Below are positions 17,834 to 50,818 of a stretch of DNA of 64,000 nucleotides, in pieces (the first letter of the stretch is position 1; each line of letters starts with the position of its first letter). Position numbers and translations under genes: made by a program. The DNA comes from Verrucomicrobiota bacterium (lineage in GTDB: Bacteria > Verrucomicrobiota > Verrucomicrobiia > Limisphaerales > CAIQOK01), in NCBI GenBank assembly GCA_046346715.1, contig JAXMHO010000007.1, positions 35,517 through 99,516 on the forward strand, read 5' to 3'. Under the pieces are notes generated by a model, which did not search any database, was not told where the DNA came from, and was given only the letters and a program-made list of their open reading frames with translations.

Positions 17834-18607
17834 TCAAAACGCCTCGGCTGCGCCGCCGTCCACCGGCATCACCACGCCGCTGACGTATTTGGCCGCCGGC
17901 GACGCGAGATAAACCGCCGCCCAGCCGATGTCGTCGGGTTCACCGAACCCGCCCATCGGAATGCGCGCCATGATCTTCGCCTTGCGCGCCGGATCGCCAC
18001 TGAGAGCTTTGTCGAGCATGTCGGAGGCAATCCAGCCCGGAGCAATCGCGTTCACCCGCACACCCTGCGCGCCCCACTCGGTCGAGAGCGTGCGCACGAT
18101 GCCGACATAGGCGGACTTCGCGGCGGAATACGCCACGACGAGCGGCATGCCCATGAAGGAAACCATCGACGCCGTGAACAGGATGCAGCCGGAGCGGCGC
18201 GCCACCATGCGTTTGCCCGCCTCGCGTGTGAGGGCAAACGCGCCGAACACATGGGTCTCGATGACTTTGGCAAACTCCGCGTCGGAAGTTTCCGTCGCGG
18301 GCTTTTTCAAATGCACCCCGGCGTTGTTGACCAGAATGGAAATGGGACCGGCCAGCTTCTCCGCCTCTTCCAGCAATCCAGGGACAGAATCCAGCTTCGT
18401 CACGTCGCCCGCCAGCGCGAATGCCTGCGGGCCGAGCGCGACGCAGGCCTTGGTCAATTCCTCGCGACGACGTCCCACGAGAACAACCTTTGCGCCCGAG
18501 GCCACAAAACACTTGGCCATGCCAAAGCCCAGACCGGTGCCGCCGCCGGTGATCAGGGCGGTCTGCCCGGTGAGATTAAACGGTGAAGCAGTTCCAGAAG
18601 TTTTCAT
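17834..18607 (-). CDS. SDR family oxidoreductase (KduD/gluconate-5-dehydrogenase-like)
   Basis: It has TGGGTGLG (TGxxxGxG) and YSAAKSA (YxxxK). ATG 18607 overlaps the upstream stop (ATGA). Confidence 0.8.
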
Positions 18608-19818
18608 GCGCGGCAACCGGCGGTGAGTGAAGGTGTGTTTTGATGTTTATACATGACGAAGTATTCGCGATGGCCGAGCGCCTCCGGCTTGCTGGGTTCG
18701 CCGGCGGCGACTTTCAACAGCAGTTCGGCCAGTTCCAGCCCAGCCTGAGGCAGGCTCAGCCCGCCGGTTAAAACTCGGCCGGCATCGAAATCCATGTCGT
18801 CGGCCAGGGCCCGGAAGGTCGAGCTGTTGCCGGTGACTTTCACCAGCGGCGCAACGGGACTGCCAATCACGCTGCCGCGGCCGGTGACGAACAGCACGAT
18901 CTGCGCGCCGGCGCTGATCAAATCCATGATGCCTTCGGTGTCGTTGGGATTGGTGTAGCCAAACTGCATGAAATGCTCGTCGGGCACGCTGTCGAGAATC
19001 CACAGCCCCGGCCCGCGCGGCGACTCGGAGACGCGGATGACGCCTTGAATTGGCCGCGTGCCGGACTTGGCAAAAGCCCCGAGACTCTTTTCCTCAATGG
19101 TGGTGAGGCCGCCCGCGAAATTTCCCGGCGACACGGACCATTGCCCCACCGAACGGCAATACCGTTCCGCCTTGTCGTAGGCATCGGCGAGTTGTTTGCG
19201 GGCTTCGTCATTGGCCGCGCGCGCCAGCATGTGCCCGCGCAATCCCATCATCTCGACGGTCTCCTCAAAAATGGCGCGCCCTCCGGCGTCCACCAGCAAA
19301 TCAAAAAACGCGCCGACGGTTGGATTGCCCGCCAACCCCGACGTCCCGTCCGAACCGCCGCATTCGCAGCCGACGGTCAGGTCGGCCAACGTCATCGGCG
19401 CCCGTGGAGTTTCGCGGCGGATGTGTTCACGGAGACCGGCGACAACTTCCTTTCCCTTGGCGACGGAAGATTTCGTTCCGCCGGTCTGCTGGATGAAAAA
19501 CCATTCTGCGGGACGCCCCGACTTCCGGACCGCCTCGGCGATTTTTTCCGGCTGGGTGTATTCACAGCCGAGTCCGACCGACAGCACCGCGCCCACGTTC
19601 GGATGCCGCGCCAGCGCCAGCATCAGACGGATGGCATAGGCATTGTCATAGCAGCCGGGAAAGCCGATGACATGGACATCCTCCTCGCCGGCCGCAATCG
19701 CGTGGGCGACGTGCTGCGCGCATTCGACGGTATAAACTACGAGCACCAAGTTGCGGATACCCTTGCGACCATCAGGACGCAGGTAGCCGGACCAGGAAGT
19801 TTTCAGCAGGTCAGACAT
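18604..19818 (-). CDS. UxaA-family sugar-acid dehydratase, large (C-terminal) subunit
   Basis: [38 protein letters not shown] resembles the altronate/galactarate dehydratase (UxaA/GarD) C-domain. The start was trimmed to ATG 19818. Confidence 0.8.
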
Positions 19819-20143
19819 AGGCGGAAGTCGTGTCGGTTGGCGCGCCCGAGTGAAGATCCAAGGTGCCGGAGCGGACGTCCAAATCGCTGGCCATGTTGTG
19901 GAGATGAACCCAGGCGCCACGCGGGATGGCCTGGGTCGCATGACCGATGCGCACCCCGTATTTGATCACTGCTTCACCCTTGGCAATGTCGCGGATGGCG
20001 AGCTTGTGGCCGTGGGTGATTTTTTCCGAGGCGAAAACCTCACCGCTGGCGGCTCCGAAAATCTCGACCACCCCCGCCGGCGCGTCGTCAATCAACGTGG
20101 CGACGTTGTCTTGGGGTTGGATTTGGAAGGCGCGGGGTTTCAT
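19811..20143 (-). CDS. UxaA-family dehydratase, small N-terminal SAF-domain subunit
   Basis: [20 protein letters not shown]...[22 protein letters not shown] is typical of the SAF/UxaA N-domain. There is an 8-nt overlap with the large subunit gene. Confidence 0.75.
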
Positions 20144-20154
20144 CGGGGGATTAT

Positions 20155-20188
20155 TTAACCGCAAAGAGCGCAGAGAACGCAGAGAAAA
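20155..20188. repeat. Repeat-family arm (left arm of cargo-bearing element)
   Basis: The sequence is ttaaccgcaaagagcgcagagaacgcagagaaaa. It lies 12 nt upstream of the UxaA-small-subunit ATG. Confidence 0.75.
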
Positions 20189-38357: not shown

Positions 38358-39840
38358 CTACAACACCCGCTTCACGGCATTCTGCCAGCCGACATGCAAC
38401 CGGGTAGCTTCCGGAAGTGGCATCCTGGTTCGGAAAACGGTCTGCGGACGTGGCAGCTTTTCCAAGTCACGGAAAGATTTGCAGACGCCTAGACCGAGCA
38501 GTCCGTTCATCGCCGCGCCCCAGGCTGAACTCTCGGCGACTTCGGCCACCTTGATCTCGGTGCGCGTCAGGTCGGCGGTGAACTGCATGAGAAATTTGTT
38601 CCGCGTCGGACCGCCGTCGGCGTGCAGACTTTGCAGCTTCACCTTGGCGTCGGCGCGCATCATGTCGAGCACGTCGCGGATCTGGTAGCTAATGGCTTCC
38701 TGCGCGGCGCGGACGACGTGGGCTTTGTTCGTGTGCGCCGTCATGCCCAGGATGGCCGCCCGCGCTTCCGGCGACCAATACGGCGCGCTCAACCCCGCAA
38801 ACGCCGGCACGAGATAAACGCCGCCGTTACCCTTCACGCTCAACGCCAGCTTCTCAACCTCCGCCGCGCTTTGAATCAAACCAAGCTGATTTTTGAGCCA
38901 TTCAATCGTCGCTGCGGAAAAATTGATGAGTCCTTCGAACGCGTAAGTGGGTTTGCCTTGGTAAACCCAGGCGAGCGCGGTAACGGCGCCTTTCTGCGAG
39001 ACGCGCAGTTGGTCGCCGATGTTGAGCAACACGCTCGTGCCCGTGCCGAACGTGGCTTTCGCCGTGCCGGGTTGATAACACCGCTGCGCAAACAGCGACG
39101 CCTGGGAATCGCCCATCACGCCGACAATCGGAACGGTCTTGGGCAACAGGCCATTCAGATTGGTTTCACCAAACTGCGCGGCGCTCTCGCGCACTTCCGG
39201 CAAAGCGCTCGCCGGAACTTTGAAAAGTTTACACAACTCGGCATCCCACTTCAGTTTGCCAATGTCGAACAGCAGCGTGCGGCTGGCGTTGGTAAAGTCG
39301 GTGGCAAAGACGTGTCCCCCGGTTAGCCGGTGAATCAGATAGGCGTCAATCGTGCTGACGACGGCCTCGCCGCTTTTGAGTTTGGCGGCGATGGCCGGTT
39401 TGTTTTCCACCAGCCAGCGGACTTTCGACGCCGAGAAATACTGTCGATCTTCAGCCCCGTTTTTCTGGAGCACGCTTGGGCCGTGACCTTGTTTGTCCAG
39501 CGCACCGCAGATGGCATCACCGGCGATCCTGCCAGACCAACGCGTTGTGCAGCGGCTTGCCGGTCTTGCGGTCGAACACCAGCACGGTCTCGCGCTGGTT
39601 CGTGATGCTGAGCGCGGCAAGCTTGTTCAGCAGGACAATTGCGCTTGGCGATCTCGCCGATGACCGCGAGGACGTTTTTCCAGATTTCCTCGGCGTCATG
39701 TTCCACCCAGCCGGGCTGCGGATAGATCTGGCGATGGTTGCGGGAGGGTTTTGTCCAGCACCTTGCCGCGCATCAAAGAGCACGGCTTTCGTGGCGGAAG
39801 TGGATTGGTCGAGGGCGAGAGGATCATGAGTGAGAAACAA
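38358..39840 (-). pseudogene. FGGY-family carbohydrate kinase (glycerol-kinase-like), multiply frameshifted
   Basis: The kinase sequence must be pieced together from three frames. [17 protein letters not shown] comes from ORF 39517..39840, GKVLDKT from ORF 39696..39920 and [33 protein letters not shown] from ORF 39335..39706. [38 protein letters not shown] returns to the first frame, and [10 protein letters not shown]... to the end comes from ORF 38358..39620. Shifts lie near 39768, 39746, 39637 and 39520, with a compensating pair at about 39461/39440. Confidence 0.8.
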
Positions 39841-39916
39841 AGGCGGCGCAGCAGCGCCTTTCTGTTACGGTAGGGACGCGCTGCTGCGCGTGCCAAATTA
39901 CACTGTGCCGGTGAAG

Positions 39917-40918
39917 TCATTTCTTTAGCAGGCTCAACGCCGTCTCGCTCAACCCTTCCATGCTGATGCCGTAGTGCCGGAAGATGTCCGCCTGCGCGCC
40001 GGGAACGGTTTCCTCATCAGGTATGCCCACGATGCGGAAGGGTTTCCACACGCCCGCTTGCAAGAGTGTAGAGGCTACCGCTTCACCGAGTCCGCCGTTG
40101 CACCATGTGTTCTTCCACCGTGACGACGGCTTTGCATTCGCGACCGGCTTTGAGGATGGCTTCCGTGTCGAGTGGCTTCACGGTGTGGACGGATAACACG
40201 CGTGCTTGGATACCGTTCCCCGGCAAGCTGTGCGGCGGCGAGGACAGCATGAACCACCGTTTCGCCGTTGGCGAGGAACGCCACATCGTTGCCTTCGCGC
40301 AGCGTGATGGCTTTGCCGACTTCAAACTTCGTTTCCGGTTTAGCAGACCATACATCGCGGCTTTGCCGAAGCGGACAAAGACCGGCTTTGTCGCCTTGGC
40401 GGCGGCGAGGATGACTTGGCGGGATTCAAAGTTGTCGGCGGGGACGATGATGGTGAGGTTGTTGATCGCGCGCAGGACGGCGAGGTCGTGCAGCGAATGA
40501 TGCGTCGTGCCGAGTGCGCCGTAGCTCGTGCCGGAGCTGATGCCGACCAGCACGGCGGGAACGTCCGAGTAACAGACATCATTTTGATCTGCTCCAGCGA
40601 CCGCGCCGTGAGGAAGCAGCTCGGCGAAACACCGAACGCCTTCTTGCCGCAGGCCGCGAGACCGGCAGTGATGCCGACGAGGTTTTGCTCCGCGATGCCG
40701 ACTTCCACAATCTGCTTGGGCAGCGCCTTGCCGAACGGCGCGAGCTTGCCTGAGCCACGCGAGTCGCTGGTGACGGCGATGATGTTCGGGTTTGCCTTCG
40801 CGAGTTCTTCCAGCGTGGCAGCAAACTCTTCGAGATTGGCGCGGCCCATTTTCAGGCCGAGCTTTTCCGCCGTGGCTTTTGCCGCAGGCGTGAACATTGA
40901 GGGTGCGGGTGCGCTCAT
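39917..40918 (-). pseudogene. Transketolase C-terminal (pyrimidine-binding) subunit, multiply frameshifted
   Basis: MSAPAPSMF...IVEVGIAEQNLVGITAGLA...SLEQIK comes from frame 1. (N)DVCYSDVPAVLVGISSGTSYGALGTTHHSLHD...FGKAAMYG comes from frame 2, and AKPETKFEVGKAITLREGNDVAFLANGETVVHAVLAAAQLAG from frame 3. NGIQARVLSVHTVKPLD...VTVEEH returns to frame 2, and NGGLGEAVAS...LSLLKK* to frame 3. The first shift is at the T-run 40582-40585. The others lie near 40345, 40215 and 40100. Confidence 0.8.
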
Positions 40919-40954
40919 GGGTGGGAAAATATCAATGATTTGAAAAAGCTGGGA

Positions 40955-41008
40955 AGCCCCTCTCCCTGTCCCTCTCCCCGCGCTTCGCTGCGGGGCGAGG
41001 GAATCGGA
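40955..41008. repeat. REP-like hairpin repeat type A, copy 1
   Basis: The sequence is agcccctctccctgtccctctccccgcgcttcgctgcggggcgagggaatcgga. It contains an imperfect 12-bp palindrome, ccctctccccgc/gcggggcgaggg. Confidence 0.8.
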
Positions 41009-41102
41009 AGCGTGCTGTATTTTGCCAGCGCTCGGGCAACATGAATCACCCATGCAACACGACGCTGTAATGCCAGAGCAGCATCGAACGCACGCGCGCC
41101 CA

Positions 41103-41153
41103 CTCCCTCTCCTCCATTCGGAATGGAGGAGAGGGCTGGGGAGAGGAGGTGCT
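41103..41153. repeat. REP-like hairpin repeat type B, copy 1
   Basis: The sequence is ctccctctcctccattcggaatggaggagagggctggggagaggaggtgct. The palindrome is ccctctcctccatt/aatggaggagaggg. Confidence 0.8.
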
Positions 41154-41168
41154 CTTGAAAATTGCGGC

Positions 41169-41870
41169 TCACTTTGCGTTTCCTTTCCTCGGAATGATTC
41201 TGTCAGGATTGGGCGGAACAAACCGATGGTTCTGAACCTTGCGCATCACGGCAACACACCCAGTGCGACGATGTAAGGCTTCCCAAACCTCCAGCAACAC
41301 GCCCTCACGATTCTTGTTCCATTGATGATTCCAGAACCGGAGTTCTTCGATGCCTTGCGAAGCTAGAAATTTTGTTCGCTCGGCGTCGTGCTGCAACTGC
41401 TCCGGCAAGCCGTGTTGAAAACCATCCAGCTCGATGGACAACTTCGCGGTGGGGCAATAGAAGTCGAGGTAGTGGTCGCCTACTTCGTGCTGCCGACGGA
41501 ATTTGAATCCAGCAAAGCGTCCGGCTTTCAACGCTTGCCAGAGTTGTTTCTCCTCGTCTGTTTGGTTGCCACGCAACAGGCGGGCGAGCGTTTTTGGAGC
41601 AGCCCCTCTCCCTAACCCTCTCCCCGCTCTTGCGTCGCAGGGAGAGGGAATCGACTCCGCGCCACGGACGTTCTTGGTATTGCGGATGCCATCAGTCTGG
41701 CGACCGGATGGAGCGTTGACTCCCTCTCCTCCATTGGATGGAGGAGAGGGCCGGGGAGAGGAGGTGCTTTGGCCGAGTTCATGAGCAGCCCCTCTCCCTA
41801 ACCCTCTCCCCACTCGCGCCTCGCGGGGAGAGGGAATCGCGCGGTTAGTGATATCACAGGTGCTGGGCAT
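41169..41870 (-). CDS. DUF559 (Vsr-like endonuclease domain) protein with repeat-encoded N-terminal region
   Basis: The C-terminal LLRGNQTDEEKQLWQALKAGRFAGFKFRRQHEVGDHYLDFYCPTAKLSIELDGFQH...FLASQGIEELRFWNHQ is typical DUF559. The N-terminal part (IPSPREARVGRGLGRGA, twice) is translated from the REP-like repeats. The start is uncertain; ATG 41870 was taken. Confidence 0.65.
   Translation of the reverse strand: MPSTCDITNRAIPSPREARVGRGLGRGAAHELGQSTSSPRPSPPSNGGEGVNAPSGRQTDGIRNTKNVRGAESIPSPCDARAGRGLGRGAAPKTLARLLRGNQTDEEKQLWQALKAGRFAGFKFRRQHEVGDHYLDFYCPTAKLSIELDGFQHGLPEQLQHDAERTKFLASQGIEELRFWNHQWNKNREGVLLEVWEALHRRTGCVAVMRKVQNHRFVPPNPDRIIPRKGNAK
41601..41654. repeat. REP-like hairpin repeat type A, copy 2
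   Basis: The sequence is agcccctctccctaaccctctccccgctcttgcgtcgcagggagagggaatcgac. Confidence 0.8.
41720..41768. repeat. REP-like hairpin repeat type B, copy 2
   Basis: The sequence is ctccctctcctccattggatggaggagagggccggggagaggaggtgct. Confidence 0.8.
41787..41840. repeat. REP-like hairpin repeat type A, copy 3
   Basis: The sequence is agcccctctccctaaccctctccccactcgcgcctcgcggggagagggaatcgcg. Confidence 0.8.
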
Positions 41871-41872
41871 GG

Positions 41873-42709
41873 TCACGCGTTTTGCAGTTTCGCTTCCGCC
41901 GTGTCGAGTTCGGCCAGCGCTTGTTTCAGTTCCGCTTCGCTCGGCACGCCGTGATGCCATTTGGCGACGTTTTCCATAAAGCTGACGCCTTTGCCTTTCA
42001 CGGTGTTGGCGATGACGAAGACCGGTTTGCCTGACGAGGGTTCGGTTAGGGCTTTCGTAAGCGCAGCGTAGTCATGGCCGTTCACACTGCGGACTTCCCA
42101 GCCGAACGCGCGCCACTTTTCGTCGAGCGGCTCGTTGCTCATCACGTCGCGCGTGTGGCCGGTGATTTGGAGCGTGTTGTGATCGAGAATCGCCGTGAGA
42201 TTATCCAACTTATAGTGTGCCGCGGCCAAGCCGCCTTCCCAGTTTGAACCTTCGGCGAGTTCGCCGTCGCCGAGCAGCGTGAAGACGCGGTAGCTGGCGG
42301 CATCCATTTTGCCCGCGAGCGCCATGCCGATGCAGATGGGCAGGCCGTGGCCGAGTGCGCCGGTGTTCATCTCCACACCTGGAATGTGCCGAGTGGGATG
42401 GCCGACGTAGTGCGATTGATAATGGCAGACGGTGTCCAAATCCGATGCCGGGAAAAAGCCGCGGTCGGCGAGCACGGCGTAGAGCGCCTCGACGCAATGG
42501 CCCTTGCTCTGCACGTAGCGATCGCGCGTCGGGCTGGTGAAGGTCTGCGGCGAGACGTTGAGCACGCGGTTGTAGAGGACGTTCAGGATGTCCAGGCAGG
42601 ACAACCCGCCGCCCGTGTGGCCCGCGCCGGCTCCGACGATGAGGTTCAACATCGATTTGCGCAGCGCGCATGCTTTCAGTTGCAGTTCGTGGTCGGTCAT
42701 GAAATTCAT
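41873..42709 (-). CDS. Transketolase N-terminal (TPP-binding) subunit, intact
   Basis: GHTGGGLSCLDIL, SKGHCVEALYAVL, GALGHGLPICIGMA and LLGDGELAEGSNWE (the GDG-x-N TPP motif) are present. The protein is 278 aa. Confidence 0.85.
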   Translation of the reverse strand: MNFMTDHELQLKACALRKSMLNLIVGAGAGHTGGGLSCLDILNVLYNRVLNVSPQTFTSPTRDRYVQSKGHCVEALYAVLADRGFFPASDLDTVCHYQSHYVGHPTRHIPGVEMNTGALGHGLPICIGMALAGKMDAASYRVFTLLGDGELAEGSNWEGGLAAAHYKLDNLTAILDHNTLQITGHTRDVMSNEPLDEKWRAFGWEVRSVNGHDYAALTKALTEPSSGKPVFVIANTVKGKGVSFMENVAKWHHGVPSEAELKQALAELDTAEAKLQNA

Positions 42710-42712
42710 TTT

Positions 42713-43763
42713 CTATTCGTGGCCCAGCATGAGTCTGCGCACCCGCTTGCTTTCGGGCCGTTGCTCCGCCATGCCGATGGCGTTGAGCGGGCCTTTGCGT
42801 TGTTTGCTATTTCCATCAACGACGGCATACCAGCTCGTCTCCACAGTCTTTTTCGGGTCTGCGCCGGCTTTGAGCAAGCGCCGGGCGATCTCATCCTCGT
42901 CTTGGGCGGCGGCATGCATCAACGGCGTCCAACGCGCAACCTGCCACCACGCTGTGCGTTTACATCTGCACCAGCCTTGATGAGCAAATCGAGAATCGCC
43001 AATCGTTCCTTAGGCTTCATTTCTCGTTCTATCGCTGCCATCTCCGCCGGGTTTTTGACGACAGCCACGAACAGCGGCGTGTCGCCCTTCGCATTGGAAA
43101 GCGCCCTAACTGGCAGTCAAACCCAAATTCACATCCCGGGCTTGGCGGCGAGCCCAGTAATTCGACAATCTCCAGGTCGCGCTGAAACACCGGATGATGC
43201 AATCCGTCCATCCGCAGACAACCCGCCTTCAACAGCAGGCGAATCAAGTCCCGGTCAATCTTTGTCGCTTGAATATCGCTAAGCTTAACGCCGTTCGGCC
43301 TCGACGCGTCTTGGCTTTCACATCTGCGCCGTGCTTCAGGAGTTTGGTCATCATTTCGTGATTGCCATCTTCGGCAGCGACCGACAGACGGGAATCTCGC
43401 CGGGATCGCCTTCGTCACTGACTGAGGATTTTTGTTCACGTCCGCGCCGGCTTCGATCAGCAAGTCCACGATTTCACCGTGCCCCGCTTCGCAGGCACTC
43501 ATCAACGGCGAATCCTCGCCCGGGAGTTTTTTGTTCACGTCCGCACCGCTCTTGATCAACTGCTTTACGAGCGAAACCAAACCGTGCTCGGCCGCGGCCG
43601 ACAACAGCAAGAAGCCACCCTTTTGCAGATTCAGAGTCAGTGGTTGATTCGCGTCCCACTCGCCATCGGCAACGCACTTCTCGACCGCCGCCCAATCCTC
43701 GGCGTTGACCAGTTTCCACATGGCTTCGTTGGTTTTCATGTTGTCGCTGGTTGTGTGAGCCAA
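42713..43763 (-). pseudogene. Ankyrin-repeat protein, multiply frameshifted
   Basis: Ankyrin-like segments are spread over three frames. They include GFLLLSAAAEHGLVSLVKQLIKSGADVN, SPLMSACEAGHGEIVDLLIEAGADVN and SVAAEDGNHEMMTKLLKHGADVKAKTRRGRTALSLA. Further segments are DRDLIRLLLKAG, GDTPLFVAVVKNPAEMAAIEREMKPKERLAILDLLIKAGADVNAQ and TPLMHAAAQDEDEIARRLLKAGADP. At least four shifts are required. Confidence 0.7.
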
Positions 43764-43771
43764 CCATCACA

Positions 43772-44137
43772 TCATTCGTGCTGACCCAATCTCGTGTATC
43801 GGGCCTTGCCTCCCTCAGCCCAAACAAGCTGCATGTGATCGCCGCGCAACTCGCACTTCGCCGCATGTGGTCCGGGTCTGGGCGTCGTGCCATCAAATCG
43901 CAGTGTCAGTCTGGCCGGCGGTTCAAACGAATAAGTTCCCATCGTTATCTCCGTGCCGGTGGTCACCTTCACCATTCCGTCCGCCTGAAACGTCAGCAAC
44001 GTGGCTGTGCCCTCCTCCGACCATGTGCCAAAGATGCCGCGCTGGGACTGGCTTGTGGCGCATCCTGCTATGATGAGCAGCAAGATCAGCGTGACCTGCA
44101 CGCTCACCAGCTTCCAAATAGTTTTATACGTTGTCAT
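43772..44137 (-). CDS. Small lipoprotein of unknown function
   Basis: It has a signal peptide with a lipobox (VTLILLLIIAGCATSQ). The 121-aa protein belongs to no recognised family. Confidence 0.55.
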   Translation of the reverse strand: MTTYKTIWKLVSVQVTLILLLIIAGCATSQSQRGIFGTWSEEGTATLLTFQADGMVKVTTGTEITMGTYSFEPPARLTLRFDGTTPRPGPHAAKCELRGDHMQLVWAEGGKARYTRLGQHE

Positions 44138-44150
44138 CAGCGTGAGAATT

Positions 44151-45038
44151 TTATGATTTCTTTTTACCGCCGGATTTTGCGCCGAGCTGCTTGAAAAACT
44201 TCGTCACGGACTCTTCGTAAGCCGCCGCGCCATAATCGGCGGCGGAACTGCCCTCGGCATCCTTGGCTTTCACGTCCACGCCAAGCTTCACGAGCCGTTC
44301 CAGCAATCGCACGGCGATTGCCGCCTCGTCCTCGTCCGACGCATCGCGTGCGAACAATGCCGCCCAGATGAATACCGTCCGGTCATCGGCGCTGGCGGCG
44401 TGCGGATCAGCTTTCGCCTCCAGCAAAGTTTCCATGACAGTTATCTGTCCGCAGCTCACAGCGTCCATGAGTGCGGTTTTGCCCTGCGCATCGCGCAAAC
44501 CCACCGGCACGCCTCGCGCCAGCAGCAACTCGACGATCTCCGTGCGCCCCTTGGCCGCCGCCGCATGCAACGGAGACAACTTCGCACCCGCCTGCAAATG
44601 CGATTTCGCACCCGCCGCCAGAAACGAATTCACCAGCGGCTTCGACCCGATACGAACCGCTTCGACCAGTGGCGTCGTGCCGTTGTTGGACGCCGCGTCG
44701 GGATTCGCGCCGGCCTCGAGCAGCAATTTCACCACGTCCAGATGCGGCTTCTCCGCCTTGCCCGCGAGCAACGCGAAGTGCAGCGCCGTCTGGTCACCCG
44801 CGCCGCCGGACTCACTCGTGGTCCGTGCCGCCACGTCTGCGCCCGCTTTGAGCAGCAGCCTCACGCAATCGGCACTGGCTGCGTTGGCCGCGAGCATCAA
44901 CGGCGTCACGTCGCGGATGTAGCCGTTGACCGTGCGGGCGTTGCCCTCCGCGCCGGCTTTCAGAGCGGCGGTGACTTTTGCGGCGTCGCCGCTTTCACAC
45001 GCTTTGAACAGGGCTGATGAACTGGCTTTCGTTTTCAT
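44151..45038 (-). CDS. Ankyrin-repeat protein (intact)
   Basis: The protein begins MKTKASSSALFKACESGDAAKVTAALKAGAEGN. Repeats follow, such as TPLMLAANAASADCVRLLLKAGADV, TPLVEAVRIGSKPLV, SPLHAAAAKGRTEIVELLLARGV and KTALMDAVSCGQITVMETLLEAKADP. ORF-track ORF 44151..45452 was trimmed to ATG 45038. Confidence 0.75.
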   Translation of the reverse strand: MKTKASSSALFKACESGDAAKVTAALKAGAEGNARTVNGYIRDVTPLMLAANAASADCVRLLLKAGADVAARTTSESGGAGDQTALHFALLAGKAEKPHLDVVKLLLEAGANPDAASNNGTTPLVEAVRIGSKPLVNSFLAAGAKSHLQAGAKLSPLHAAAAKGRTEIVELLLARGVPVGLRDAQGKTALMDAVSCGQITVMETLLEAKADPHAASADDRTVFIWAALFARDASDEDEAAIAVRLLERLVKLGVDVKAKDAEGSSAADYGAAAYEESVTKFFKQLGAKSGGKKKS

Positions 45039-45057
45039 TCTTGTGGTTGCGCGCGGT

Positions 45058-45864
45058 TTACCGGACAAACACCTTCCAGTTGGAAAGCACGATCGAACAC
45101 ACCGCCGGAACGCGGCTGATGAGTTTGAGTTCGATCTGACTGTAGCCTTTCGGGAATTGCAGTCCGACTTCGTAAGTGCCGGCCCAGGTCGTGTCCTCGC
45201 CGTTCTTTTTGGTGCGCGCCACCCACTTGTCGCTTTTGCCGTCGAGCACCACGTCCTCGACCAACTTCGCCCGTTGCCAGTCGGAAACCGTGTCGAAATC
45301 CGAAACGCCCAGCGGCTTCTTCGGATTGCCCAGGCGCACATAAACATCGGAGTCGACGCAGCCGTAGCTGTTGATATGCGTAACGCGGACGACCGTGCGG
45401 CTCTTGGAACTGGGCGGCTTCGGAATCGTCGTCGCGCGCAGGACGGATTCACCGGTCAGGTGGAAACTGGCTTCCGCATTCTTTTGTTCGACCTGTTTCC
45501 GCTGTTCGGTGGCGGCGTTCGTTGCGGCCGGCTTAGACGATTTGCCAAGCGGCGATTCAGTGAGGAACTCCACACCATCCCGGCGGTTGTATTTGGTCAC
45601 CCGTTCGTCCAGGAAATTGAAAAGCGTGTAGGTCTTGCTTCGACGGGTGAGCCGGTAGCGGCGAGTCTTGCTCGGGCCTTTGAATAATTTTGACGCAAGG
45701 CTCACCACGCAGGAAAATTCATTTTCCAACTCGGCGGTGTAAGAGCCTGTATCGTAACCCATCTGATACTTGCCGTCCTTGAGCGTGAAAGGCAGCGCCG
45801 GGCTGCCGACTTGATAGTAAGCTCCTTCCAAGCCATCAATCTTCTGATTTTTTTTGGTGCTCAT
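45058..45864 (-). CDS. Hypothetical protein
   Basis: The ORF is long and has non-low-complexity composition (MSTKKNQKIDGLEGAYYQVGSPALPF...). No family was recognised. The start is ATG 45864, with 45885 as an alternative. Confidence 0.5.
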   Translation of the reverse strand: MSTKKNQKIDGLEGAYYQVGSPALPFTLKDGKYQMGYDTGSYTAELENEFSCVVSLASKLFKGPSKTRRYRLTRRSKTYTLFNFLDERVTKYNRRDGVEFLTESPLGKSSKPAATNAATEQRKQVEQKNAEASFHLTGESVLRATTIPKPPSSKSRTVVRVTHINSYGCVDSDVYVRLGNPKKPLGVSDFDTVSDWQRAKLVEDVVLDGKSDKWVARTKKNGEDTTWAGTYEVGLQFPKGYSQIELKLISRVPAVCSIVLSNWKVFVR

Positions 45865-45877
45865 CGTGTCCAGCCTT

Positions 45878-46570
45878 TCAGTCATAGGACCGTTGCAAAA
45901 TCTCCAGAACGTCTCCTTTAATCGACTCAGGTTTCCCATCGTGCGAGTCCAAATAGAACAACGTTGAAGCTGGAGGCTCTATGCGATGCAACACAAACTG
46001 ATCGCCCTCGCGCTCTGCAAGGACAAGGAAATCGCCATCCGCGAAAGCCGTGCGATATGCTGTCTTAGCGTCGTGAATCGTCCAGTCACCGAAATCCTGT
46101 TTTTGATGCTTCGTCAAAAACTCACGCCACGAATCAGGTATCGGTGGCGGTTCATTTGTGGAATCAACCACCATTGGGTCTGCCAACAATCGGGCGGACG
46201 GCGCGGCATCCCATTCGGCGAAAGCGATGGCTTTTGGATTCGGTGTGATCGTGAAATCGAAAATATGGCCGCCAATACTCGTAAGCGTCGCCTTGTAGGT
46301 TCGCTTGGTGACGCTAAACCGGACTTCCGCCAGTTGGAACTCGCCAGTGCGAGGGAATGTCGGAACGTCACTCCAATCCACCTTTCCAGACCGCCTCCGA
46401 TAAAAACAAATCTCGTTGGGATGCCGCTGGACGAGCGTGATGCTTGCGACTTGCGAATCAAAGATGGATTGAGCCGGCGGTGGCAACACCTCTCGCACAA
46501 CGGCCACAAGCCGCTCTTCCAACGGCGAAAAACGCCGCCAAAGCAAGCTGAGTCGTTGTGTGATGGTCAT
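45878..46570 (-). CDS. Hypothetical protein, C-terminal half weakly SUKH/SMI1-KNR4-like
   Basis: The protein is 230 aa. The C-terminal part, IPDSWREFLTKHQKQDFGDWTIHDAKTAYRT...GDFLVLAEREGDQFVLHRI, is reminiscent of SUKH immunity-type domains. This is a weak, by-eye resemblance. Confidence 0.4.
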   Translation of the reverse strand: MTITQRLSLLWRRFSPLEERLVAVVREVLPPPAQSIFDSQVASITLVQRHPNEICFYRRRSGKVDWSDVPTFPRTGEFQLAEVRFSVTKRTYKATLTSIGGHIFDFTITPNPKAIAFAEWDAAPSARLLADPMVVDSTNEPPPIPDSWREFLTKHQKQDFGDWTIHDAKTAYRTAFADGDFLVLAEREGDQFVLHRIEPPASTLFYLDSHDGKPESIKGDVLEILQRSYD

Positions 46571-46606
46571 GACCTTTTGAGACTTATTCAGTTCGTGATT
46601 CGGATT

Positions 46607-48024
46607 TCAGCCGTGATGTTGAACTTCCCACCCGAAATAATTCCCAAACGCTTCAGCCAGGATTTCCGCCGAGTGCGATTGCGTCATGACGACGTGATGT
46701 TCAAAGCCTTTTTCGCAGACGTGACGCAGGACTTTTTGCAGGTTCGGCACTTTGGCCACGGCGCGGTTGCCGAAGGTCTTGAGTTCGTCGTTCGTGAGTT
46801 CGCCTTCGCCGACGTAGCAGCGGATTTTGCCCTCGGCATCGGCGGTGGTGATGCGGCCGTAGGTCAGCGGGCCGGCGGGCGTGCGACCGTCGAGCGCGCC
46901 ATAGGTGTTTTCCACGCCGAGAATGCTGCCAAGGATCGGCGCGTTGGCGATCTTGATGTCGGGCAGGAAGGATTTTGCCCAGTTGCCGCAATGGAAGAGG
47001 ACGCATTTGTCGTCGTCGTCCGCGTAGTTGTTGTTCCAGTCCACGAGCGCGGCGGGCGTGCCGCCGGCGAGTTGCATGGCATACATGGTGAGCACGCCGG
47101 TGACGTCCACTTCGCAGGCGCTGGGCATGAACTTCTCGCTCATCATGCTCATGAGCGTGCAGACGTTGCAGCCGAAGTTCGCCTGCACGGACGTCCAGCA
47201 TTGGATGGCGGTGGCGTCGAGGTGATTGGCGTTCATCCAATCGGTGAGCACCACGCCCATCTTGGCCATCTGCACGAGCTTGTCGTTCGGCACGCCGGGC
47301 GCGGGGGCGTAGCCGGTGATTTCTTTGAGCTTGGATACGACGGATGGGGCGGAGGCGTCCAATTTGTTCGCTGCGCCGATGATTTCTGACAAATCCACGG
47401 TCGTGACGCTGATGCCGTGGCGTTCGAGGATTTTTCGGAGTAACGCACTGTGTTGAATGCGCCGGGCCGCGCGCCGACCGCGCCGAGGCGGACGCCGCGC
47501 AGGCCATTCACCACGCGGCAGACGCCGAGGAACTTTTGCAGGTCGCGCTTGAAGCTGTCGGACGCTGGATGCGAAACGTGTTTGCTGGTGAGCGTGAACT
47601 TGATGCCGGCCTGCACGAGGTTGTTGCAGACGGAAATCTTGCCGCAGAAGGAATCGCGTCGGCGCGACGGCATGAGTTGCTTCGGATCGTCGGGATAACC
47701 TTGGATGAGCACGGGAACATTCAGTCCCGCGAGCTTCAGCGTGTCAGCCACGCCTTTTTCGTCGCCAAAGTTCGGCAGGCAGACGAGCACGCCGTCAATT
47801 TCATCCGCGTGCTTCTTGAACAGCTCGGCGCACTTGCGGGCGTCGTTGTGCGTCTCCACGCCGCCGAGCTTGGAATCGGATTCGCCGAGCTGGATGGCTT
47901 TGATGCCGTATTCGGCAAACAGTTTGGCGATGTCCGCCCGCGCTTCGGTGACGAGGGCATCGGGGAAGAAATCGCGGTTGCCGTAGATCACACCAAGGAC
48001 GGGCGGTTGGAGATTGGTTTTCAT
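46607..48024 (-). pseudogene. L-fucose/L-arabinose isomerase-family sugar isomerase interrupted by a single frameshift
   Basis: The N-terminal 190 aa or so come from ORF 47233..48024 (...GAVGARPGAFNTVRYSEK). The rest comes from ORF 46607..47398 (...DLSEIIGAANKL...). Adding one base to the T5 run at 47431-47435 would restore SEKILERHGISVTTVDLSEII. Confidence 0.75.
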
Positions 48025-48052
48025 ATGATAAGAGTTTACAGGTTAAATTTGT

Positions 48053-48676
48053 TCAGTGCGCCGGCGTATTGGTCGTTTCCGACAAGGTCTTCTTTTTCCG
48101 GTTTGAGATCACGCCCTGGGCGGAAAGGTAATTGTTGATCTTGCCTTTGTAGCGGTTGAAAATGGCGGACTTCTCGTCGGCGCTCCCGGCATCGACGGCT
48201 TCTTCCCGGGCCTCCTTGAGCAGGGACAGCACGCGCGCCTTCTGTTCTTCGGTCAGGCCGGAGTATTCGTTGAGGTAGCCCGTGTAGGTAAACTGCACCT
48301 TGCCGTAGGTCATCTTGTCCTTCACGGCCTCAACCTGTTCCGGCGTCAGGTCCAAGGCCAACCGGGCGAAGAAAATCTCGTGAACCGCCCGGAGGGATTG
48401 CTTGAACCGATCGGTCTCCTCGCCTCTGGCCAGCTTGCGGGGCGCGTCGTTGGTGTCGTGCCAGTCGCGCAGCGTGCGGTATTGCGCAATGATGGCGTCG
48501 TGCACCCGGGCGGCGCGGTTGGTGTCGGCCAGGGTCAGAACTTTCAGAATGTCCGCGGCGCGGCCCTCGATGGCGGCGGCGTATTTCGCCTCGGCTTCCG
48601 GGGTGGAATTGGTCGGGGCGGCGAGACAACCGGCCGCGAGCAGGAGGCCAGCCAAGGTCAGCGATGCTGTTTTCAT
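48053..48676 (-). CDS. DUF3826 domain protein (secreted)
   Basis: It has a signal peptide (MKTASLTLAGLLLAAGCLA). ...IIAQYRTLRDWHD...KMTYGKVQFTYTGYL...IFNRYKGKINNYLS resembles DUF3826, a family found in pectin utilisation loci. Confidence 0.65.
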   Translation of the reverse strand: MKTASLTLAGLLLAAGCLAAPTNSTPEAEAKYAAAIEGRAADILKVLTLADTNRAARVHDAIIAQYRTLRDWHDTNDAPRKLARGEETDRFKQSLRAVHEIFFARLALDLTPEQVEAVKDKMTYGKVQFTYTGYLNEYSGLTEEQKARVLSLLKEAREEAVDAGSADEKSAIFNRYKGKINNYLSAQGVISNRKKKTLSETTNTPAH

Positions 48677-48799
48677 AGTGAGGACTGAGTCATGAACCGG
48701 GAAAGTGTAAATTCATTGCCGGCTGGAGATAAGCGAAAAACTGCCGGATACATTTTGAATAATGCCCGTTGCCTGGTGTGCCGCAGACGAACAAAACCA

Positions 48800-50818
48800 T
48801 CATCGCCGGTCCGCCGTCGCCGAACCATCCCCGGCGGCAAGAGGAAGCCAGACGCTCATCTCAGACGGCCCGCGGTTTTGCCAGAGGGCGTAGGGGATGA
48901 ATTTGACGGCGTTCAGCTGCCACTTCGCCGGCTGAACTTCACGATATAATTTTCCATTCCAGTCTGACGCGGCGGCGGTGAGAACTTTGCCCTCCAATAC
49001 CGCCACGCCCCCCAGCAGACGCCGGTCATAGCGGGCCCGCAGTTCGAGGTTCGACGGAATCCGAACGTCGGAAATCTTCATGCCCTTCGGCAGGTCGGGC
49101 GATTCAAGGCAATAGACCACCGGCCCGCGCTGGAACGCGACCTGGTTGAGGGTTTCCTCCACGAGCGGATTGGCTTCCATCATGCGCACGGGCATCGGCA
49201 GGTCCAAATCAACGAGATCTCCCCGCCGCCACTCGCGGCGGAGCTCCAGATAACTGTCGGCTCCCACGGAACGGGCTGGCTGCCGATTCAAGCGCACAGC
49301 TGCCGACTTCGCCCAGCCGGGAATGCGCAGCTTGAGGGCGAACTCCCGCGCCGGGGCTTCGAGAATTTTTATCCGCACCCGGCCGTTCCATGGATACTCC
49401 GTCTGCTGTTCGAGGCGAACCGGCGCGCCTTGCACGTCGGTTTTGAATTCACTGCCGCCATACAGATTGACCCAGATGGTGTCCGGGGATTTACCGTAGG
49501 CGTAACCGGCGGATTCCGCGATCGTCCGCACCAGGTTCGGCGGGCAGCAGAACGAGCTGACGAACGGCACGCGCGTCCGCGCCCAGCGAAGTTCCGTCGG
49601 CAAGGGATCGGTGACCCGCAGCGGATTGGTGTAAAAGAAATTGGTCCCATCAAGACCGCCACCCGAGAGGATGGCATTGTAGAGCTCCAATTCCACGACA
49701 TCCATGAATCGCCCCTCCCCCGTGGCGAGAAACATCCGCCAGTTCCACATGGCGTTGCCGATGTTGGCGCAGGTTTCATTGTGCGCCGTGGTATTGGGGA
49801 GCTGATAGTTGCGGCCATAGGATTGGTGAACCCTGGTGATGCCGGCCTGATACTTGGCTGCGTCGGGCGACGCCCCGTCGTAGAGCGCGCCGCAGCCGCC
49901 GGTGATGTAGAGCTTCTCCTCGACAACGTTCGTCCAGATCGGACCAAGGGGTTTCAGATAGGCGGCGTCACCGGTCTCTAGAAACAGATCAGCCGCGCTG
50001 GCAAACAGGTAGTTCGCGCGCACCGCATGGCCGGCGGCGGTGGTCTGCTTGCCGAAGGGAATGCGGTCCTGGTTGTCGTCACCACCGTCCTTCACCTCGC
50101 TCCGCAGTTCAAACAGCCGCTTGGACAAGGCGAGATACCGCCGCTCCCCGGTGGCGCGATATAGATCGAGCAAGCCCATGTAATGCGACGGACAAACCGG
50201 GCTGCGGGCGTGGTCCGGCGTGGCATTGCTGAAACTGTGGTCGAGAAAATCCGCCGCCTTCACGGCGATGACCAGCATGTTTGTCCGGCCCGTGATGCGA
50301 TGATGCACGCAGGCGGTGGTGAAGAGATGCCCGAAGTTGTACATCTCGAAATTGCCGCGGTCAGAAAATGGCGCGGCGTTGGTGTCACCCCGCATCTTTA
50401 TCAGCGTGGGCGTGTTCAGGTAACCGTCCGCCCGCTGCGCCCGGCCGATGACCGCGATGATGCGGTCCAGTGAATTGTTGAGCGCCGCATCGTTGGTGAC
50501 CGCCAGCGTGGCGCAGGCGCCTTCGATCCATTTGTAGAAATCCCCGTCGTTGAAGGATGCGCCGCGCGACCGGCCCTCGGCGAGCCCGGCGGCAATTTCA
50601 AAGTTGCGGAAGAACTGCGTGTAGTTCGTGCCCTCCATCAAACGACCCATGCTGGGAATCATCTGGGTGCGGCACAGCTCGAACTTGTCGTGCCAGAAGC
50701 CCGAGGTCCAGCGCACGTCCGCCAAGGCCACCGGCTGCACCTTTGCCGAGGGCAGTGGTTCCGCGGCATGGACCGCAAGACAGGCAAACAATCCCAGACC
50801 AACTGTCGTAATCTTCAT
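48800..50818 (-). CDS. Glycoside hydrolase family 127 (beta-L-arabinofuranosidase/DUF1680)
   Basis: It has a signal peptide, the motif GHAVRANYL and the Cys-rich zinc-site motif SSFCCPPNLVRT typical of GH127. There is an ATGA overlap with the upstream gene. Confidence 0.8.
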   Translation of the reverse strand: MKITTVGLGLFACLAVHAAEPLPSAKVQPVALADVRWTSGFWHDKFELCRTQMIPSMGRLMEGTNYTQFFRNFEIAAGLAEGRSRGASFNDGDFYKWIEGACATLAVTNDAALNNSLDRIIAVIGRAQRADGYLNTPTLIKMRGDTNAAPFSDRGNFEMYNFGHLFTTACVHHRITGRTNMLVIAVKAADFLDHSFSNATPDHARSPVCPSHYMGLLDLYRATGERRYLALSKRLFELRSEVKDGGDDNQDRIPFGKQTTAAGHAVRANYLFASAADLFLETGDAAYLKPLGPIWTNVVEEKLYITGGCGALYDGASPDAAKYQAGITRVHQSYGRNYQLPNTTAHNETCANIGNAMWNWRMFLATGEGRFMDVVELELYNAILSGGGLDGTNFFYTNPLRVTDPLPTELRWARTRVPFVSSFCCPPNLVRTIAESAGYAYGKSPDTIWVNLYGGSEFKTDVQGAPVRLEQQTEYPWNGRVRIKILEAPAREFALKLRIPGWAKSAAVRLNRQPARSVGADSYLELRREWRRGDLVDLDLPMPVRMMEANPLVEETLNQVAFQRGPVVYCLESPDLPKGMKISDVRIPSNLELRARYDRRLLGGVAVLEGKVLTAAASDWNGKLYREVQPAKWQLNAVKFIPYALWQNRGPSEMSVWLPLAAGDGSATADRR

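Follow-up and report, generated by a model that had tools for sequence, protein, structure and literature searches.

Indels (insertions and deletions) which remain in the consensus and fragment genes are a known failure of long-read assemblies which have low depth or were not polished with short reads (PMC9262707; proovframe preprint 10.1101/2021.08.23.457338). Neighbouring genes with multiple indels, together with DNA inserted in the same module, have also been described for pseudogenes of Burkholderia leaf-nodule symbionts (PMC6054270), where the indel sizes are broad and substitutions and stop codons accumulate. Here we analyzed a stretch of 64,000 nucleotides (nt) from a Verrucomicrobiota bacterium (GenBank assembly GCA_046346715.1, contig JAXMHO010000007.1, positions 35,517 to 99,516), hereafter the window, which is part of a 131,080-bp contig of a metagenome-assembled genome (MAG). 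Four genes of one locus in it, encoding a GlpK-family FGGY carbohydrate kinase, a transketolase C-terminal subunit (tktC), an ankyrin-repeat protein (ank1) and a fucose-isomerase-family protein (fucI-like, called the isomerase below), are broken by frameshifts. The locus resembles the errors of long-read and hybrid assemblies (Sereika et al. 2022, PMC9262707; proovframe) in its 1–2-nt indels fragmenting the gene calls, in a coding signal which is intact after homologue-based correction, in its MAG source and in the local nature of the damage. It differs from them in that most events lie outside long homopolymers, 9 of the 22 are 2 nt in size, and they occupy two patches in 64 kb rather than being scattered. 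With the Burkholderia pseudogenes it shares the multiple indels in neighbouring genes and the inserted DNA, whereas the indels are here of 1–2 nt, and neither stops nor an excess of substitutions accompany them. We argue that the frameshifts are very likely local consensus errors in the deposited sequence and not mutations in the organism.

Frameshift events in four genes

The protein sequence of the four genes was found to hop between frames in six-frame translation, in a frame plot of third-position GC content (GC3) and in a codon-usage Viterbi segmentation. Events were placed in two ways, by MAFFT nucleotide alignment to 4–5 intact orthologues and by a frameshift-aware protein-to-DNA dynamic programme, which gave a total of 22 indels: seven in the FGGY kinase gene, four in tktC, ten in ank1 and one in the isomerase gene. 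An earlier note on this DNA, made from the letters of the sequence, had reported at least 14 shifts in the same four genes (at least six, four, at least four and one, respectively), which was borne out and turned out to be an undercount. All events are of 1–2 nt, comprising nine 1-nt deletions, four 2-nt deletions, four 1-nt insertions and five 2-nt insertions, and inside the four genes the orthologue alignments showed nothing of 3 nt or more that was specific to the window. The kinase events (2-nt insertion at ~39820, 2-nt deletions at ~39771, ~39637 and ~39522, 1-nt insertions at ~39746 and ~39467, 1-nt deletion at ~39441) are confined to the first ~390 nt of the gene (39441–39820), and its 3′ 1080 nt are clean. 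In tktC we noticed 1-nt deletions at 40584 and 40342 and 1-nt insertions at 40221 and 40100. The ank1 events comprise 1-nt deletions at 43432, 43216, ~43122, 43114 and 42938, 2-nt insertions at 43388, ~43263, 43153 and 43136 and a 2-nt deletion at 43203; the same ten events were obtained against each of six different intact homologues. The single isomerase event is a contraction from A6 to A5 on the coding strand, seen as T5 at 47431–47435. A second 1-nt deletion near the C-terminus of the isomerase (46620) was discarded as an alignment-end effect, the C-termini being variable among orthologues. The homopolymers quoted in the earlier note are present as described (T4 at 40582–40585, T5 at 47431–47435 and, at 39746–39748, GGG).

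Summed over all events, the length of tktC changes by 0 nt (−1, −1, +1, +1) and that of the kinase gene by −3 nt, so that both genes end in the frame in which they start. Zero net frame change is a one-in-three chance per gene, and the restored end frame means nothing functionally, since there are stops in the shifted stretches.

The distribution of the events is strongly uneven, with 21 of the 22 falling into two patches, 39441–40584 (11 events) and 42938–43432 (10 events), and the last one standing alone in the isomerase gene. The patches held 18 events in 1638 nt versus one event in 7369 nt of checkable clean sequence of the region (Fisher p = 7e-13), a conservative count, since ank1 was entered with an earlier figure of 7 events. 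Thus the cluster which the earlier note had drawn over 38358–47435 is real as a cluster, although it does not spread over that whole span, and its argument that clustering speaks against uniform sequencing error agrees with events packed into two patches of 0.5–1.1 kb plus one singleton. Clean sequence between the events includes, besides the 3′ part of the kinase gene, a DUF559 cassette, the transketolase N-terminal subunit gene tktN, the second ankyrin gene ank2 and three hypothetical genes; outside the patches the rest of ank1 is clean, and so is the rest of the isomerase gene. No frameshift event was found in tktN against its orthologue in the relative L082, and its product shows 93% amino acid identity to that of L001. 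The flanks, described earlier as intact, proved to be so, with no other frame break in the remaining ~54 kb of the window, where the Viterbi segmentation gave no same-strand frame switch. One candidate frameshift, at 19814–19941, was rejected as a genuine two-gene UxaA arrangement in which both genes have a stop and a start of their own. This altronate-dehydratase-like UxaA (18607–20155) is laid out as overlapping genes for a small SAF-domain subunit (19814–20155) and a large subunit (18607–19941).

The same contrast is visible in the public annotation. NCBI protein accessions run at one per gene over 6.4 to 38.3 kb and 43.8 to 54.5 kb, while there are eight accessions for the five genes at 38358–43766 and none for the isomerase gene; the public record therefore already splits these genes.

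Coding signal after correction

Undoing the 22 events gave all four genes at full length with zero stop codons. The corrected proteins are 92–96% identical to intact orthologues (kinase of 490 amino acids, 453/490 identical to the L082 orthologue; tktC product, 313/332 identical to L001; isomerase, 455/474 identical to L082), except for that of ank1, which is 76% identical to its best homologue and whose intact homologues have 335–349 amino acids and 71–76% identity. A comparison with orthologues on the reconstructed frames, including the ratio of non-synonymous to synonymous substitution rates (dN/dS), had been proposed in the earlier note, and we carried it out. Pairwise dN/dS of the corrected genes was 0.05–0.14, equal to that of pairs of intact orthologues and of the untouched tktN, and the window branch was no longer than the L001 branch.

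We further considered the sites at which all other sequences agree and counted window-unique differences per codon position. In tktC these were 3/569 at codon positions 1 and 2 versus 12/97 at position 3, in the FGGY kinase gene 9/787 versus 16/113 and in the isomerase gene 0/805 versus 3/167. The unique rates at positions 1 and 2 are equal to or below those of each intact orthologue tested likewise, while third positions differ at 2–14%. The same pattern was observed inside the first patch, with 2/278 versus 6/47 for tktC and 4/222 versus 7/33 for the kinase gene, and the few unique residues adjoin the indel sites. There was thus no sign of relaxed selection, be it an excess of non-synonymous or position-1/2 changes or stop codons, in the corrected genes, patches included.

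These counts can be set against known mutation rates. Spontaneous indels in bacteria arise at ~0.1–0.36 of the base-substitution rate (PMC4978911, Table 1), and elsewhere the indel rate is given as about tenfold below that of substitutions (PMC6054270). Eleven real indels in 906 nt would then imply about 30–110 neutral substitutions, and at least 17–60 changes would be expected at invariant position-1/2 sites, versus six observed, which is background (Poisson p 2e-3 to 6e-19). An expectation this high, set beside changes at background level, speaks against real mutation; the implied indel-to-substitution ratio would be at least 10 times the known bacterial one. The sizes do not fit either. In real bacterial pseudogenes (the Burkholderia data set) the mean deletion size is ~19 nt and multiples of 3 are over-represented (PMC6054270), and this natural spectrum of broad sizes, larger deletions and multiples of 3 is not matched by events which are all of 1–2 nt.

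Sequence context of the indels

Runs of 5 nt or more account for only 2 of the 22 events, both of them A6 to A5 and both in the context AAAAA/ATCCTC, one in the isomerase gene and the other in ank1. About 14 events lie in runs of 1–3 nt or in GC, CG or TC dinucleotide repeats, and about five have no obvious repeat context. Natural slippage is rare in all of these contexts, the short runs, the dinucleotide repeats and sequence with no repeat. Homopolymer errors, which the earlier note had invoked, therefore fit the two A6 to A5 events and not most of the others, which sit in these short runs and dinucleotide repeats. Four of the 22 indels (39441, 39522, 39820 and 40584) lie within 7 nt of a GATC site where about one would be expected. 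Miscalls linked to methylation at this Dam motif were considered and set aside, the excess being too weak and the local GATC density high, and we place no reliance on them.

Independent sequence of the same population

The window is matched at 100% identity by two Logan contigs of the sequencing run SRR14932640, L081 over 47953–48861 and L115 over 44870–46179. The same population is thus present in that run, and the deposited sequence is exact over both stretches, neither of which covers an indel site. Exact-protein look-ups in Logan, ENA and JGI returned these two contigs alone, both outside the patches, and nothing turned up in the literature under the run accession. No contig of the same population was found among GTDB representatives or JGI metagenomes: in the former, relatives reached at most ~93% nucleotide identity for any one gene of the locus, and a scan of the latter with the hypothetical protein F, encoded upstream of ank2, gave nothing above 87% amino acid identity. 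Homologue searches with the corrected proteins, and with a query in which corrected and as-is versions were concatenated, yielded no near-identical fragment; the concatenated query was swamped by tktC orthologues scoring twice and gave closer FGGY relatives, P0334 and P0339. Besides NCBI's own, no ank1 fragment of this population, intact or shifted, was present in the protein collection, whereas genes neighbouring ank1 were found in Logan at 100% identity. The lack of such a fragment fits thin read support over ank1, though it is not proof of it. A strain-chimeric or mosaic consensus was also considered and rejected, as the nearest of six relatives, judged by sliding-window identity, stayed the same through the patches.

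Origin of the indels

Taken together, the intact corrected frames and the patchy 1–2-nt indels favour a distinct low-quality patch of the assembly, one of the two explanations offered in the earlier note. We propose that the reads behind the consensus over 39441–40584, 42938–43432 and the A-run at 47431–47435 were too few or too noisy. The likely cause would be long-read sequence which was thinly covered or escaped polishing, where the platform and the polishing route are what we infer, and the outcome would be 1–2-nt insertions and deletions left behind at 1–2% density. Beneath the errors there would then lie an intact, selectively maintained sugar-catabolic module and an intact ankyrin gene. 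A relative MAG, L065, whose name contains "ont", carries a frameshift in its own tktC gene (L065:11618) and appears to be a comparable case of a gene broken by an indel, in a bin derived from nanopore reads. Several points weigh on the other side of this explanation. The verdict is drawn from the deposited sequence, and if the MAG were short-read only, errors would hardly account for indels of this density. Wherever it can be checked (L081 and L115), the deposited sequence is exact, though those stretches lie outside the patches. The share of 2-nt events, 9 of 22, is above that expected from simple homopolymer miscalls, and general long-read error should have produced patches elsewhere in the window, where there are none. 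Lastly, real loss of function would be plausible in an operon which, like this one, has accessory DNA inserted in it.

The other explanation in the earlier note was genuine pseudogenisation, which would here have to be very recent: once the operon had been invaded by accessory DNA, the module and the ankyrin gene would no longer have been needed, and both would have gained real frameshifts. Two interruptions of the operon agree with such a course, namely 3.9 kb of inserted DNA separating the isomerase gene from tktN and the DUF559 cassette separating tktN from tktC. So do the involvement of multiple genes of a single module, the absence from the window of the ABC transporter by which the module is followed or accompanied in relatives, the pair of A6 to A5 events, plausible as natural slippage, and the exactness of the deposited sequence where it can be checked. 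Yet decay should have left its marks on the codons, whereas the corrected frames had no stops, neither position-1/2 nor non-synonymous changes were in excess, and dN/dS was 0.05–0.14. The indels, only of 1–2 nt, stand at 1–2% density in short patches beside clean sequence of the same genes, with a ratio to substitutions far beyond the bacterial one, while tktN, lying mid-module, is free of them. Nor do the insertions explain decay, because relatives which share the DUF559 cassette or the ank1 neighbour keep these genes intact. We consider pseudogenisation unlikely on these grounds. Mutation could also have been near-instant, with one or a few tracts of ~0.5–1 kb produced by error-prone, indel-biased synthesis (e.g., mutagenic gap-filling or break repair) at a dispensable accessory locus of a wild Verrucomicrobiota population. 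Such synthesis, if it occurred, would have inactivated four genes before substitutions could accumulate, and we regard it as a long shot.

A mixed origin, in which a few events are real, the A6 to A5 contractions of the isomerase gene and ank1 for example, and the dense patches technical, appears similarly improbable. The isomerase event is isolated, far from the patches and in the longest homopolymer involved, real slippage usually strikes runs of A6 length, and the NCBI annotation pipeline (PGAP) apparently treats the isomerase gene as a pseudogene. But sequencing miscalls, too, classically fall in A6 runs, not one of the 805 position-1/2 sites of the isomerase gene carries a unique change, and an event within a patch, in ank1, has the same sequence context, pointing to one technical cause for both. 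Programmed recoding or phase variation, that is, functional ribosomal frameshift sites or contingency-locus switches, could draw on the net frame change of 0 in tktC and −3 nt in the kinase gene, which brings the 3′ parts back into the starting frame. It is effectively refuted by orthologues which are unshifted at all 22 sites, and we attach next to no weight to it: the out-of-frame stretches contain stops and the open reading frames (ORFs) are broken, there is no long simple-sequence tract (the longest run involved is A5/A6), and 4 to 10 shifts per gene are incompatible with any known recoding. Local consensus errors thus remain the reading which we adopt.

The underlying locus and its accessory DNA

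The MAG bears the NCBI name "Verrucomicrobiota bacterium" and is Limisphaerales-like; the GC content of the window is ~0.60, and the nearest GTDB species representatives are MAGs of Limisphaerales (Verrucomicrobia subdivision 3). NCBI proteins of the window run from MFO1487894 to MFO1487937, with PGAP-style locus tags U1F65_055xx. All genes of the locus (Table 1) are on the minus strand, in the order, from high to low coordinates, isomerase, accessory block, tktN, DUF559 cassette, tktC and FGGY kinase, and the arrangement of the module is conserved across Limisphaerales relatives. The underlying module is an ordinary conserved isomerase, split-transketolase and kinase sugar locus of Limisphaerales with strain-variable accessory insertions.

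Table 1. Features of the locus in window coordinates, with the two indel patches.
Feature	Coordinates	Strand	Remarks
Fucose-isomerase-family gene (fucI-like)	46607..48024	-	Pfam Fucose_iso_C; one 1-nt deletion
Hypothetical "F"	45878-46570	-	intact; one of NCBI proteins MFO1487930-933
Hypothetical "E"	45058-45864	-	intact; one of NCBI proteins MFO1487930-933
Ankyrin gene ank2	44151-45038	-	intact; one of NCBI proteins MFO1487930-933
Lipoprotein-like small hypothetical	43772-44137	-	intact; one of NCBI proteins MFO1487930-933
Ankyrin-repeat gene ank1	42713..43739	-	10 small indels, 42938 to 43432
Transketolase N-terminal subunit gene tktN	41873..42700	-	Pfam Transketolase_N; intact
DUF559 endonuclease-like cassette	40920..41870 (ORF 41169-41870)	-	Pfam DUF559, full domain
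Transketolase C-terminal subunit gene tktC	39917..40918	-	Pfam Transket_pyr/Transketolase_C on fragments; 4 indels
GlpK-family FGGY carbohydrate kinase gene	38358..39827	-	Pfam FGGY_N/FGGY_C; 7 indels
Indel patch 1	39441..40584	.	11 events in 1144 nt, about 1%
Indel patch 2	42938..43432	.	10 events in 495 nt, about 2%

The corrected kinase matched NCBIfam NF000756 with 571.8 bits against a cut-off of 498, residues 2–488 aligning to positions 7–493 of the 502 of the profile, and fell slightly under the equivalog cut-off of TIGR01311 (578.7 versus 590.35). The isomerase scored 88.5 bits against the profile of the sulfoquinovose isomerase SftI (NCBIfam NF048012), whose cut-off is 700, so that membership of Pfam Fucose_iso_C alone is established for it. 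An isomerase, a split transketolase and a sugar kinase are presumably reminiscent of the sulfoglycolytic transketolase and D-apiose transketolase pathways, a likeness which we offer as a lead and not as a claim of membership. Within the isomerase gene, a tract of ~300 nt at ~46900–47200 (codon-alignment columns 825–1125) is 97–100% identical to L001, L002 and L082, with flanks at about 87–93%; it could reflect recent recombination or unusually strong constraint at the nucleotide level.

In most relatives (L003, L008, L057) the isomerase gene abuts tktN directly, and because of this we regard the 3.9-kb accessory block as an insertion. The junction (window 42704–46606) looks like an insertion hot spot in the clade. 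It holds a Peptidase_S66 gene in L082 (6281–7282), and on the JGI contig of P0128 an intact ank1 orthologue directly follows the isomerase gene and is itself followed by PDDEXK_3 and Pec_lyase/Sde182-like genes. Full-length members of the F family occur in JGI metagenomes at up to 87% amino acid identity. A Logan allele of protein F, P0374, is identical over 215 amino acids and differs at 5 of the last 15 residues (window 45878–45925), and this C-terminal divergence suggests a possible strain-level recombination boundary at the junction of F and E.

The DUF559 cassette is found at the same place, between tktN and tktC, in L082 and L007, and aligns to that of L082 without gaps at ~90% identity over 41660–40920; tktC and the kinase gene of L082 are intact. 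Three 57-nt hairpin-forming repeats of the GGGGAGAGGG type flank DUF559 (40951–41007, 41597–41653 and 41783–41839), and in the window 186 nt of the 5′ end of the cassette are additionally duplicated in frame. Judged by these features, the element looks like a small mobile cassette which would leave the operon undisturbed. In L001 a gene for a 489-amino-acid membrane protein lies between tktN and tktC.

Consequences for the public record

The NCBI protein P0141 (236 amino acids, window 43029–43739) joins the N-terminus of the ank1 product to a last ~125 residues which are out of frame. No NCBI protein accession exists between MFO1487933 and 934, where the isomerase gene lies, and from this gap the gene is probably annotated as a pseudogene in the record. 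If the indels are errors, the record therefore contains a mis-annotated ankyrin fragment, an operon split into spurious coding sequences and an isomerase gene probably mis-flagged. Were they real, which is unlikely, the locus would be the record of an unusual indel-only mutational process acting patch by patch. If they are errors, inferences of pseudogenes or "gene loss" drawn from such MAGs would be wrong, and the 22 corrections listed here restore four full-length proteins.

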